DNA of 46,225 nucleotides from Escherichia coli (GTDB lineage Bacteria > Pseudomonadota > Gammaproteobacteria > Enterobacterales > Enterobacteriaceae), in NCBI RefSeq assembly GCF_003334315.1, contig NZ_QOWR01000037.1; one strand, written 5' to 3'. A model generated the notes under the pieces. It was not told where the DNA came from, did no database searches, and was given only the letters and a program-made list of their open reading frames with translations. The stretch's first letter is position 1; each line of letters starts with the position of its first letter. Below are positions 12,352 through 45,242 of this stretch, piece by piece. A program made the position numbers and the translations under genes.

Positions 12352-12438
<87 letters not shown>

Positions 12439-15925: not shown

Positions 15926-16243
15926 ATTATGTTTTTAAATTGTCTATAAGTTCCAAAAATTACATGTTTTGTCTTCTGTTTTTGTTGTTTTAATGTAAAT
16001 TTTGACCATTTGGTCCACTTTTTTCTGCTCGTTTTTATTTCATGCAATCTTCTTGCTGCGCAAGCGTTTTCCAGAACAGGTTAGATGATCTTTTTGTCGC
16101 TTAATGCCTGTAAAACATGCATGAGCCACAAAATAATATAAAAAATCCCGCCATTAAGTTGACTTTTAGCGCCCATATCTCCAGAATGCCGCCGTTTGCC
16201 AGAAATTCGTCGGTAAGCAGATTTGCATTGATTTACGTCATCA

Positions 16244-16283
16244 TTGTGAATTAATATGCAAATAAAGTGAGTGAATATTCTCT
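16244..16283. promoter_or_regulatory. Tandem ArgR operator boxes overlapping the carAB arginine-regulated promoter
   Basis: TGTGAATTAATATGCAAA (16244-16261) matches the ARG box consensus TnTGAATwwwwATTCAnw with one mismatch; a second, weaker box follows. carAB is known to carry ARG boxes at its downstream promoter. Confidence 0.55.
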
Positions 16284-20942: not shown

Positions 20943-21338
20943 ATGTGTGAAGGATATGTTGAAAAACCACTCTACTTGTTAATCGCCGAATGGATGATGG
21001 CTGAAAATCGGTGGGTGATAGCAAGAGAGATCTCTATTCATTTCGATATTGAACACAGCAAGGCGGTTAATACCCTGACTTATATTCTGTCGGAAGTCAC
21101 AGAAATAAGCTGCGAAGTTAAGATGATCCCTAATAAGCTGGAAGGGCGGGGATGCCAGTGTCAGCGACTGGTTAAAGTGGTCGATATCGATGAGCAAATT
21201 TACGCGCGCCTGCGCAATAACAGTCGGGAAAAATTAGTCGGCGTAAGAAAGACACCGCGTATTCCTGCCGTTCCGCTCACGGAACTTAACCGCGAGCAGA
21301 AGTGGCAGATGATGTTGTCAAAGAGTATGCGTCGTTAA
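20943..21338 (+). CDS. caiF: Transcriptional activator of the cai/fix operons, CaiF (131 aa)
   Basis: Conserved start MCEGYVEKPLYLLIAEWMMAENRWVIAREIS; the ORF-track N-terminal extension from 20838 is rejected. Confidence 0.9.
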   Translation: MCEGYVEKPLYLLIAEWMMAENRWVIAREISIHFDIEHSKAVNTLTYILSEVTEISCEVKMIPNKLEGRGCQCQRLVKVVDIDEQIYARLRNNSREKLVGVRKTPRIPAVPLTELNREQKWQMMLSKSMRR

Positions 21339-21369
21339 TGTCATTTCGATGATACCGTGCGACCTGGTC

Positions 21370-21544
21370 GCCGGATGCGATGCTGGCGCATCTTATCCGG
21401 CTTACGGTTGCTCTCCAGCCGGGTTGGATAAGGCGTTTATGCCGCATCCGACAGCTATCGCCGGATGCGATGCTGGCGCATCTTATCCGGCCTACGGTTG
21501 CTCTCCAGCAGAGTTGGATAAGGCGTTTACGCCGCATCCGGCAA
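21370..21544. repeat. REP/BIME cluster: two tandem ~90-bp REP-containing units between convergent caiF and caiE
   Basis: CGCCGGATGCGATGCTGGCGCATCTTATCCGG...GGATAAGGCGTTTA(T/C)GCCGCATCCG occurs twice in tandem. Confidence 0.85.
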
Positions 21545-21546
21545 GA

Positions 21547-22137
21547 TCACCGTTTAGGCGTCACATCCGTTGTCCCCTGCAAACGGGGGCGATTTTCCTC
21601 CATTTGCCTCAACGGCTGCGTTTCATGTAACGATGCATGATAGCGCCCGACAAGATCCTGATACTCTTTGGTATTCAACCGTTTCCAGTGTAACTCGTCG
21701 TCACTAACACTGCGTACAGCGCGGGCTGGCGTACCCATCAACAACTGGCGTTTCTCGCCGCTAAAGCCCGCTTTGACAAAGCTCATGGCGGCAACAATGC
21801 TCTCTTCGCCAATGACCGCGCCATCCATAATCACGCTGTTCATCCCGACCAATGCATCGCGACCAATCACACAACCATGCAGGATCGCTCCGTGCCCGAT
21901 ATGGCCGTTTTCCCCAACAATGGTGTCAGTGTCGCAGTAGCCATGCATAATGCAGCCATCCTGAATATTGGCTCCCGCTTGCACGATCAACCGCCCGTAG
22001 TCACCACGCAGTGAGGCGAGTGGGCCGATGTAGACACCGGCTCCCACAATCACATCGCCAATCAAGACGGCACTGGGATGGACAAACGCCGTCGGGTGAA
22101 CCACCGGAATTAACCCCTCAAAGGCGTAATAGCTCAC
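21547..22137 (-). CDS. caiE: Carnitine operon protein CaiE (hexapeptide-repeat / gamma-carbonic-anhydrase-like fold), 196 aa with GTG start
   Basis: Hexapeptide-repeat motifs ([14 protein letters not shown]..., [14 protein letters not shown]); GTG start at 22135-22137 gives MSYYAFEGL; the ORF-track start at 22158 would overlap caiD. Confidence 0.9.
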
Positions 22138-24663: not shown

Positions 24664-25899
<1,236 letters not shown>

Positions 25900-25914: not shown

Positions 25915-26000
<86 letters not shown>

Positions 26001-37094: not shown

Positions 37095-37130
37095 TGCCGG
37101 ATGCGACGCCGGTCGCGTCTTATCCGGCCT
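37095..37130. repeat. REP element between folA and apaH
   Basis: TGCCGGATGCGACGCCGGTCGCGTCTTATCCGGCC palindromic unit. Confidence 0.7.
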
Positions 37131-37148
37131 TCCTGTATCAGGCTGTGT

Positions 37149-44132: not shown

Positions 44133-44948
44133 ATGCAGTATTGGGGAAAAATCATTGGCGTGGCCGTGGCCTTACTGATGGGCGGCGGCTTTTGGGGCGT
44201 AGTGTTAGGCCTGTTAATTGGCCATATGTTTGATAAAGCCCGTAGCCGTAAAATGGCGTGGTTCGCCAACCAGCGTGAGCGTCAGGCGCTGTTTTTTGCC
44301 ACCACTTTTGAAGTGATGGGGCATTTAACCAAATCCAAAGGTCGCGTCACGGAGGCTGATATTCATATCGCCAGCCAGTTGATGGACCGAATGAATCTTC
44401 ATGGCGCTTCCCGTACTGCGGCGCAAAATGCGTTCCGGGTGGGAAAATCAGACAATTACCCGCTGCGCGAAAAGATGCGCCAGTTTCGCAGTGTCTGCTT
44501 TGGTCGTTTTGACTTAATTCGTATGTTTCTGGAGATCCAGATTCAGGCGGCGTTTGCTGATGGTTCACTGCACCCGAATGAACGGGCGGTGCTGTATGTC
44601 ATTGCTGAAGAATTAGGGATCTCCCGCGCCCAGTTTGACCAGTTTTTGCGCATGATGCAGGGCGGTGCACAGTTTGGCGGCGGTTATCAGCAGCAATCTG
44701 GCGGTGGTAACTGGCAGCAAGCGCAGCGTGGCCCGACGCTGGAAGATGCCTGTAATGTGCTGGGCGTGAAGCCGACGGATGATGCGACCACCATCAAACG
44801 TGCCTACCGTAAGCTGATGAGTGAACACCATCCCGATAAGCTGGTGGCGAAAGGTTTGCCGCCTGAGATGATGGAGATGGCGAAGCAGAAAGCGCAGGAA
44901 ATTCAGCAGGCATATGAGCTGATAAAGCAGCAGAAAGGGTTTAAATGA
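44133..44948 (+). CDS. djlA: DnaJ-like co-chaperone, membrane-anchored, DjlA (271 aa)
   Basis: N-terminal TM segment [30 protein letters not shown] and C-terminal J-domain with HPD ([17 protein letters not shown]). Confidence 0.94.
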
Positions 44949-45242
44949 CCCTGTAAATGATGCTGAGTAACTGCCCACGATTAAAGGTGGCCGCCCTGGC
45001 GGTCACTTCTTTGAGAAAAGGCGTTTACTCAGAATGGTGGACAGGCTCAATGCACGGTTTACGGGAGGGGTTCTGTAGGTTTTATCGCGTTGACCCTGCT
45101 TAAGGTTGAGAGCTTTACGACGAGCGGAATTATATTTTTACGTCTTAAAAATAAAAAACACATACCTGAATGAGCGATTTTTGAAAGTATATTTATTCAG
45201 AACGCGCATCATGAGTTTTTAACTCAATGCGAGGCTATTACC

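Follow-up and report, generated by a model that had tools for sequence, protein, structure and literature searches.

The gap between the convergent genes caiF and caiE in this stretch of Escherichia coli DNA (46,225 nucleotides, here called the window) holds a two-unit BIME-2, in which each 90-bp unit pairs a z2-type REP with an inverted y-type REP across a short linker. We make this identification because Rfam assigns the y and z2 elements and because the structure matches the published definition of BIME-2, a z2 REP and an inverse y REP joined by a short linker, with tandem copies that are alike within a locus and variable in number among strains (PMC3333891). Taken jointly, the best explanation, to which we assign a probability of roughly 85%, is a two-unit BIME-2 that originated by local duplication and that functions by analogy with other REP arrays. 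The array is a known kind of element, from a known family with known behaviour, and it is found in well-studied strains.

The first-pass annotation of this DNA had described a tandem duplication of a REP-containing unit of about 90 bp with few differences between the copies, and several analyses bear this out. A repeat search returned two direct 86-nt copies (21368-21453 and 21458-21543; 94% identity, start-to-start spacing 90), and Tandem Repeats Finder reported 21368-21540 with a period of 90, 1.9 copies, 95% matches and a score of 318. The units differ at five sites (21402/21492, 21420/21510, 21422/21512, 21440/21530 and 21451/21541, which are unit positions 35, 53, 55, 73 and 84), with 81 of the 86 positions identical. 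The self dot-plot of 21340-21560 that had been proposed as a check reveals the tandem structure as 42 direct matches at a word length of 10, all of them at an offset of 90. The 34-nt exact direct repeat found here is the longest in the whole 46-kb window; in 20 shuffles of the window the longest was at most 17 nt. The extent given previously, 21363-21545, started 5 nt too far to the left and ended 2 nt too far to the right, and its other coordinates were correct. The placement between convergent caiF and caiE also stands, given the positions and strands of the two stop codons (listed below); the gap measures 208 bp, of which the repeat takes up 176 bp. The window is 100% identical to several RefSeq chromosomes over 701 bp and 99.2% identical to BL21(DE3) over 38 kb, and BL21 coordinates for the locus are those of the window plus one. 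The features of the locus are as follows.

20943-21338, + strand: coding sequence of caiF, 131 amino acids, stop codon TAA at 21336-21338 (list of open reading frames, and annotation of 100%-identical RefSeq matches)
21368-21457, no strand: BIME-2 unit 1, 90 bp, comprising z2 REP, tail-to-tail linker, inverted y REP and the 4 nt GCTA
21370-21405, + strand: z2-type REP of unit 1, hairpin at 21370-21401, tail TTAC (pattern search, fold)
21406-21422, no strand: S-type tail-to-tail linker of unit 1, GGTTGCTCTCCAGCCGG (sequence)
21423-21452, - strand: y-type REP of unit 1, in inverse orientation to z2, RNA dG about -11 kcal/mol (aligned by Rfam with the Y half of RF02564, all pairs standard)
21422-21492, + strand: y-linker-z2 module across the unit junction (Rfam RF02564, 70.7 bits)
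21453-21459, no strand: head-to-head linker AGCTATC, the unit junction (sequence)
21458-21543, no strand: BIME-2 unit 2, 86-nt repeated part (Tandem Repeats Finder, repeat search)
21460-21495, + strand: z2-type REP of unit 2, hairpin at 21460-21491, canonical tail CTAC (Rfam, pattern search, fold)
21496-21512, no strand: short tail-to-tail linker of unit 2, GGTTGCTCTCCAGCAGA (sequence)
21513-21542, - strand: y-type REP of unit 2 (Rfam, fold)
21370-21379 and 21533-21542, no strand: outer perfect 10-nt inverted repeat that flanks the whole array, GCCGGATGCG and CGCATCCGGC (repeat search)
21547-22137, - strand: coding sequence of caiE, stop codon TGA at 21549-21547 (list of open reading frames, and annotation of 100%-identical RefSeq matches)
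21349-21630 (+ strand), 21380-21640 (+ strand) and 21286-21537 (- strand): spurious open reading frames (list of open reading frames)

Read on the + strand, a unit begins with a 32-nt hairpin, GCCGGATGCGATGCTGGCGCATCTTATCCGGC, continues with CTAC (TTAC in unit 1) and a 17-nt linker, and ends with a second hairpin of 30 nt in the opposite orientation, GTTGGATAAGGCGTTTA[T/C]GCCGCATCCG[A/G]C. The z2 hairpins of the two units have the same sequence; Rfam aligns that of unit 1 with the Z2 half of RF02564 (model positions 45-76) at 29.8 bits, which is below threshold. The tetranucleotide at the foot of the REPs (GTAG, or CTAC on the other strand) is canonical only in the z2 REP of unit 2: the TTAC of unit 1 is one mismatch from CTAC (GTAG on the minus strand), and the tails of both y REPs are degenerate, with GTTG where GTAG is expected. 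REP consensus patterns in a variable-gap search match 21374-21401 and 21464-21491; elsewhere in the window they match three intergenic sites (12357-12434, 25921-25994 and 37100-37132), and shuffles yielded none. The CTAC tail and the y hairpin are 17 nt apart, a spacing comparable to those of the window's two other REP pairs (16 and 12 nt). As RNA, either strand folds into z2 hairpins of about -20.7 kcal/mol and y hairpins of -11 to -13 kcal/mol, and the fold of the whole gap has z-scores of -5.1 (+ strand) and -4.7 (- strand) relative to shuffles. Unit 2 is identical over 86 nt (0 differences) to the single unit of one sequenced O157:H7 allele, that of TX 265-1. A BIME-1 or IHF site was considered and rejected: z1 and the long linker are absent, and the IHF core motif was found on neither strand of the array.

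Comparison of copy number across strains, also suggested in the first pass, shows that the number of units differs (remnant, one, two or three) among the 5,426 complete E. coli genomes, all of which contain the locus. Among 60 evenly spaced rows from these genomes, the locus spans 278 bp in 21 (the K-12-type allele), 311 bp in 28 (one unit) and 401 bp in 9 (two units); one row has an unrelated insert within the span, and the remaining row comes from a plasmid, with a short match that lies outside the locus. The estimated shares among complete genomes are about 35% for a K-12-type decayed remnant, about 47% for one unit and about 14% for two units. A 40-mer from unit 2, with the tail-to-tail linker at its centre and confined to this locus in E. 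coli genomes, occurs at 2,755 places in 2,011 genomes, with up to 3 per genome. These counts give about 742 two-unit genomes (about 14%), a figure that presupposes the detection of both units in each two-unit genome, and some one-unit alleles with a diverged linker fall below the E-value limit of the count. The two-unit genomes include E. coli B (BL21 and REL606), ATCC 8739 and UMNK88. We rejected the idea that the two-unit allele is an assembly artefact, as about 740 independent complete genomes share it, and also that of a dispersed mobile 90-bp unit, given the confinement of the linker to this locus.

A synthetic three-unit query identified three units in one genome, EH10-18-47 (L006, locus 290-587), which is a single assembly. 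Its middle unit resembles unit 2 at its start (CCTAC) and unit 1 at its end (CCGGG, TATG and GACAGCTA); judged by this chimaeric make-up, it is the exact product that would be expected from a misaligned exchange between unit 2 and unit 1. The CaiF and CaiE proteins of EH10-18-47 have the same accessions as those of BL21, and the three-unit allele therefore comes from a two-unit lineage. At the other end of the series, the gap of the K-12 allele measures 85 bp. A degenerate z2 hairpin survives in it, along with a linker trace (CCAGGTC), and the y REP is reduced to its head (GCATCCGGCA); the allele looks like a decayed single unit. The K-12 z2 hairpin carries two symmetric G-to-A changes that break two pairs. 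The third stem pair of the first-unit z2 REP is C-G in the window, T.G in M19 and NU14, and T-A in CX12, a compensatory path along which the hairpin is kept. In the insert allele, found in about 1 of the 60 sampled genomes, the z2 hairpin loop contains the initial ~100 nt of IS1397. In CNREC_004-43 (L003, about 319-418) this consists of the left end of IS1397 and the start of its first open reading frame, abutting the right arm of the REP, and GN06156 has the same allele class. IS1397 inserts specifically into REPs (PMC1525189), and the fragment looks like the remnant of a REP-targeted insertion that was followed by deletion.

The sequence at the junction of the two units bears on how the duplication arose. 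A scan of one genome per species with a pattern for the C terminus of CaiF identified 24 loci. In E. whittamii, which has one unit, the sequence after it is GACAGCTATCGCTTTGG; here CTA corresponds to the stop codon of caiE (TAG) and TCG to its last Arg codon. The 12-nt junction GACAGCTATCGC (window 21450-21461) is identical to the y-head and caiE stop-codon region of E. whittamii, and TCGC is present at both ends of the duplicated segment. Because the junction matches the E. whittamii stop region exactly, we favour a local duplication at the TCGC microhomology, in which a single pre-existing unit would have been copied together with the last codon and the stop codon of caiE, between the two TCGC sites. 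As the stop codon was duplicated along with the unit, the junction keeps the older stop region and appears to fossilise an older 3' end of caiE. The event would have taken place in an ancestor with a whittamii-like flank, with the caiE-proximal copy diverging later, and units may now be gained and lost when they undergo replication slippage or unequal homologous exchange with one another. Two units with a period of 90 are also present in SCPM-O-B-8794 (labelled E. coli; 93.9% identity to the window over 12.6 kb), with a nearly identical junction, CAGTGATCGCC; the presence of two units in a lineage that is ~6% diverged means that the two-unit state is either old or recurrent. Paralogous units within the genome have 5 differences, and orthologous units of the window and SCPM-O-B-8794 have 7-8. 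As to the direction of evolution, concerted evolution or independent duplication would also be compatible with the unit differences.

Several other accounts of what made the array, or of what it encodes, have to be weighed against a locally duplicated BIME-2. The duplication could have been made by a REP-associated tyrosine transposase (TnpA-REP/RAYT), through cleavage at CT and strand transfer rather than homology-driven exchange. This enzyme cleaves BIMEs in vitro at CT dinucleotides in the iREP and the linker and recombines them, the published RAYT models yield one added BIME unit (PMC3333891), and the junction, AGC followed by TATC, holds a CT. However, RAYT binding requires GTAG and a stem mismatch (PMC3333891), and GTAG is kept in only one of the four REPs, the z2 of unit 2, which has it on the minus strand together with an unpaired stem position; the minus strand of the unit 1 z2 reads GTAA, and both y REPs have GTTG. 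The TCGC common to both ends of the duplicated segment and the three-unit allele, which is the exact product of a homologous misalignment, also speak against the transposase, and we consider its involvement improbable; the window itself does not contain the transposase gene. Protein coding by the repeat is another alternative, and one to which we give next to no credence. Three frames are simultaneously open (93, 86 or 83 amino acids): the two that the first-pass annotation had already called artefacts of the repeat, and a third on the minus strand (21286-21537) that it had not named. By coincidence, the insertions and deletions found here (90 and 33 bp) are divisible by three, so that related frames are open in several alleles. 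Against a protein, all three frames are open together and their length tracks the number of units (30 amino acids more per unit), the start codon ATG is TTG in many alleles, and the frames are interrupted in GPEC1035 and SCU-301. None of the 13 RefSeq records inspected has an annotated coding sequence (PGAP) across the repeat, and NCBIfam has no family for these open reading frames; they are artefacts, as had been proposed, and stem from stop-free GC-rich palindromes. The module at 21422-21492 (+ strand) might alternatively be read as a gene for an HU-binding, nucleoid-associated small RNA similar to naRNA4. It is the only match to RF02564 above the gathering score (70.7 versus 59.5 bits), is full length and has only standard pairs, and above-threshold matches are confined to alleles with at least two units, their number being that of the units minus one (two in the three-unit allele, one in two-unit alleles); one-unit alleles score 34-40 bits, and K-12 has no match. 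naRNA4 itself has been reported to bind HU and to condense DNA through two hairpins (PMC4550694). However, the model was built on the Y-l-Z2 repeat of REP325, its first half corresponding to y and its second to z2, and it describes one BIME-2 unit, so that any y-linker-z2 junction scores. In addition, the linker here is 6 nt shorter than that of the model, and a scan found no promoter-like site in or before the array besides that of caiF itself. The nucleoid role of naRNA4 was not reproduced in a 2026 preprint, in which REP325/naRNA4 had no effect on nucleoid compaction and formed no stable ternary complex (bioRxiv 10.64898/2026.03.23.713779). Because the model recognises any y-linker-z2 pair, the match is structural recognition of a BIME-2 junction and not evidence of a small RNA gene, which we find hardly credible at this site.

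What the array does to the transcripts is approached here by analogy. The convergent caiF and caiTABCDE transcripts would both run into the array, and each RNA would thereby gain four stable hairpins that would block 3'->5' exonucleases and would give leaky attenuation of transcripts that read on antisense into the opposite gene. REP325, a BIME-2 of six units, stabilises the upstream mRNA, attenuates downstream transcription and yields a ladder of hairpin-ended RNAs, or leaky stops; its partial dependence on Rho is seen with the full 12-hairpin array only and is not detectable in fragments with 2-4 hairpins (bioRxiv 10.64898/2026.03.23.713779). The same preprint reports that REPs do not uniformly prolong mRNA half-lives, that both genes of convergent pairs with a REP are more highly expressed, and, in its supplements, caiF and caiE in differential-expression tables only; a literature search for terminator data on caiF and caiE found none. 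An efficient bidirectional terminator that ends both transcripts inside the gap would be a stronger version of the barrier. The hairpins are stable on both strands, REPs are present in ~30% of E. coli convergent pairs, 78 REPs lie within 306 published bidirectional terminators, and REP325 cuts downstream expression ~8-10-fold. However, the array hairpins lack the form of a Rho-independent terminator (a GC-rich hairpin and a U-tract), as there is no U-tract in the 12 nt after any of the four hairpins on either strand; a terminator scan found no site inside 21339-21546, terminator-like sites nearby are no more numerous than in shuffles, and the stops of REP325 are leaky, with fragments of 2-4 hairpins showing no Rho dependence. 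We regard an efficient terminator as unlikely. The 'bidirectional transcription barrier' of the first-pass annotation is thus retained, by analogy with REP325, as leaky attenuation and an exonuclease block, and is unlikely as a true terminator; the array would at best be seen as a two-way exonuclease block combined with a leaky attenuator. The nearest terminator-like hairpins with T-rich tails are in the 3' end of caiE (21574-21589, + strand) and in the 3' end of caiF (21257-21239, - strand); if these sites are real, the two mRNAs overlap by ~350 nt across the BIME.

The two genes differ in their distance from the array. In the caiE mRNA, the y hairpin of unit 2 begins 4 nt past the stop codon, and on the other side the first REP hairpin begins 31 nt past the stop codon of caiF. 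REPs at most 15 nt from a stop codon are reported to stall ribosomes and to lower translation of the upstream gene (cited in PMC12306157). With its y hairpin 4 nt from the stop codon, caiE belongs to the class of genes with a REP at most 15 nt away, and this rule could apply to caiE and not to caiF. At least 12 of the 24 caiF-caiE loci (those read by eye; L014-L037, from Citrobacter, Pseudocitrobacter and Escherichia spp., compared over the first ~120 nt after the caiF stop codon) have a GC-rich palindrome ending in ...CCGGC at 4-5 nt from the caiE stop codon. What lies inside the palindrome varies by taxon and can be a BIME, a simple hairpin or one y-like REP that has GTAG. From these sequences, the hairpin next to the stop codon seems to be the feature that is conserved across taxa. 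At the level of DNA, BIME-2 elements are enriched in sites of gyrase cleavage, most of which fall in y REPs (PMC6379681), and the y REPs described here would be preferred sites of gyrase binding or cleavage.

Compared with a single unit, the array has two more hairpins, one more y REP and a head-to-head junction. Because both gene-proximal junctions are the same as before, the effect of the duplication itself is probably small. The extra unit may even be a neutral by-product of repeat instability, with one, two and three units equivalent and only the gene-proximal hairpins of consequence, a reading that we place a little below even odds. Besides the untouched gene-proximal junctions, it is favoured by the fact that the copy-number states and the decayed K-12-type remnant are common in healthy lineages, and by the hairpin 4-5 nt from the caiE stop codon being the sole feature shared with Citrobacter and Pseudocitrobacter; conversely, hairpin number altered the transcript pattern in REP325 constructs, and the two-unit state persists also in the ~6% diverged lineage. 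A bolder proposal, which we consider a long shot, is that the number of units tunes the carnitine regulon from strain to strain, by setting the stability or read-through of the caiF and cai mRNAs and, from two units upwards, by providing a releasable HU-binding y-linker-z2 small RNA. Were this so, the one-, two- and three-unit alleles would be regulatory variants and not neutral length polymorphisms.

Other parts of the window yielded observations of their own. The minus strand at 248-400 matches the Rfam family of the sok antitoxin (RF01794, 119.8 bits), pointing to a hok/sok-type toxin-antitoxin locus just upstream of nhaA, and 16194-16246 (+ strand), upstream of carA, matches the small RNA ES003 (87.4 bits) and is identical to the model consensus. 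An IS1 that is present in BL21(DE3) (L013 5863-6630) is absent here, at window ~6630-6637, where the alignment blocks share 8 nt. At 24664-25881 (- strand), caiB is an intact open reading frame of 405 amino acids, unlike its BL21(DE3) counterpart, for which RefSeq records a frameshift. The source of the window is thus a relative of E. coli B in which the cai operon is intact. The last ~1.3 kb of the window (44947-46225) has no alignment of at least 300 nt to the collinear BL21(DE3) stretch. This part includes an open reading frame of 266 amino acids (45243-46043, + strand) where K-12 has the split yabP/yabQ, and in BL21 the djlA-rluA interval is only 117 bp.

In annotations, BIME-2 or REP array is the appropriate label for the element, and the open reading frames across it should not be called genes. 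This one locus displays a BIME life history, with duplication at a microhomology that left a fossil stop codon, expansion to three units, decay in K-12 and capture of IS1397. E. coli B (two units), O157 (one) and K-12 (a remnant) constitute a natural allelic series in which effects of hairpin number on convergent transcripts could be studied. The junction fossil, the chimaeric three-unit allele and the allele frequencies are small additions, with little import beyond annotation.

Among known systems, the IS1397 target sites are matched in that some strains carry the IS1397 left end in the z2 loop of this locus, which is what a REP would lead one to expect, although the window itself has no insertion sequence and the insert elsewhere is a ~100-nt remnant rather than the full element. 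As in naRNA4/CssrE (RF02564), there is a 71-nt y-linker-z2 module above the gathering score, likewise with two hairpins; however, that family was defined from REP325 transcripts and stands for a discrete HU-binding RNA of ~77 nt, whereas the module here is known from its sequence and exists only where two units abut. Intrinsic bidirectional terminators are likewise GC-rich palindromes that fold on both strands and lie between convergent genes, but the array lacks the flanking A/T tracts that would give a U-tract on either transcript. BIME-1, or RIP, which combines y and z1 with a long IHF-binding linker, is also an intergenic inverted REP pair; here, by contrast, the second REP is of z2 length, the linker is short, neither strand has an IHF core and the pair is tandemly repeated. 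The array differs from REP325 (yjdM-yjdN, six units) in having only two units, a 7-nt head-to-head linker that is 6 nt shorter, a degenerate y REP tail and convergent rather than tandem flanking genes. With REP325 and the BIME-2 family as a whole it shares the alternation of inverted y and z2 hairpins, the short tail-to-tail linker, the head-to-head joining of units, near-identical units within the locus, a unit number that varies among strains and an extragenic position in the 3' UTR.
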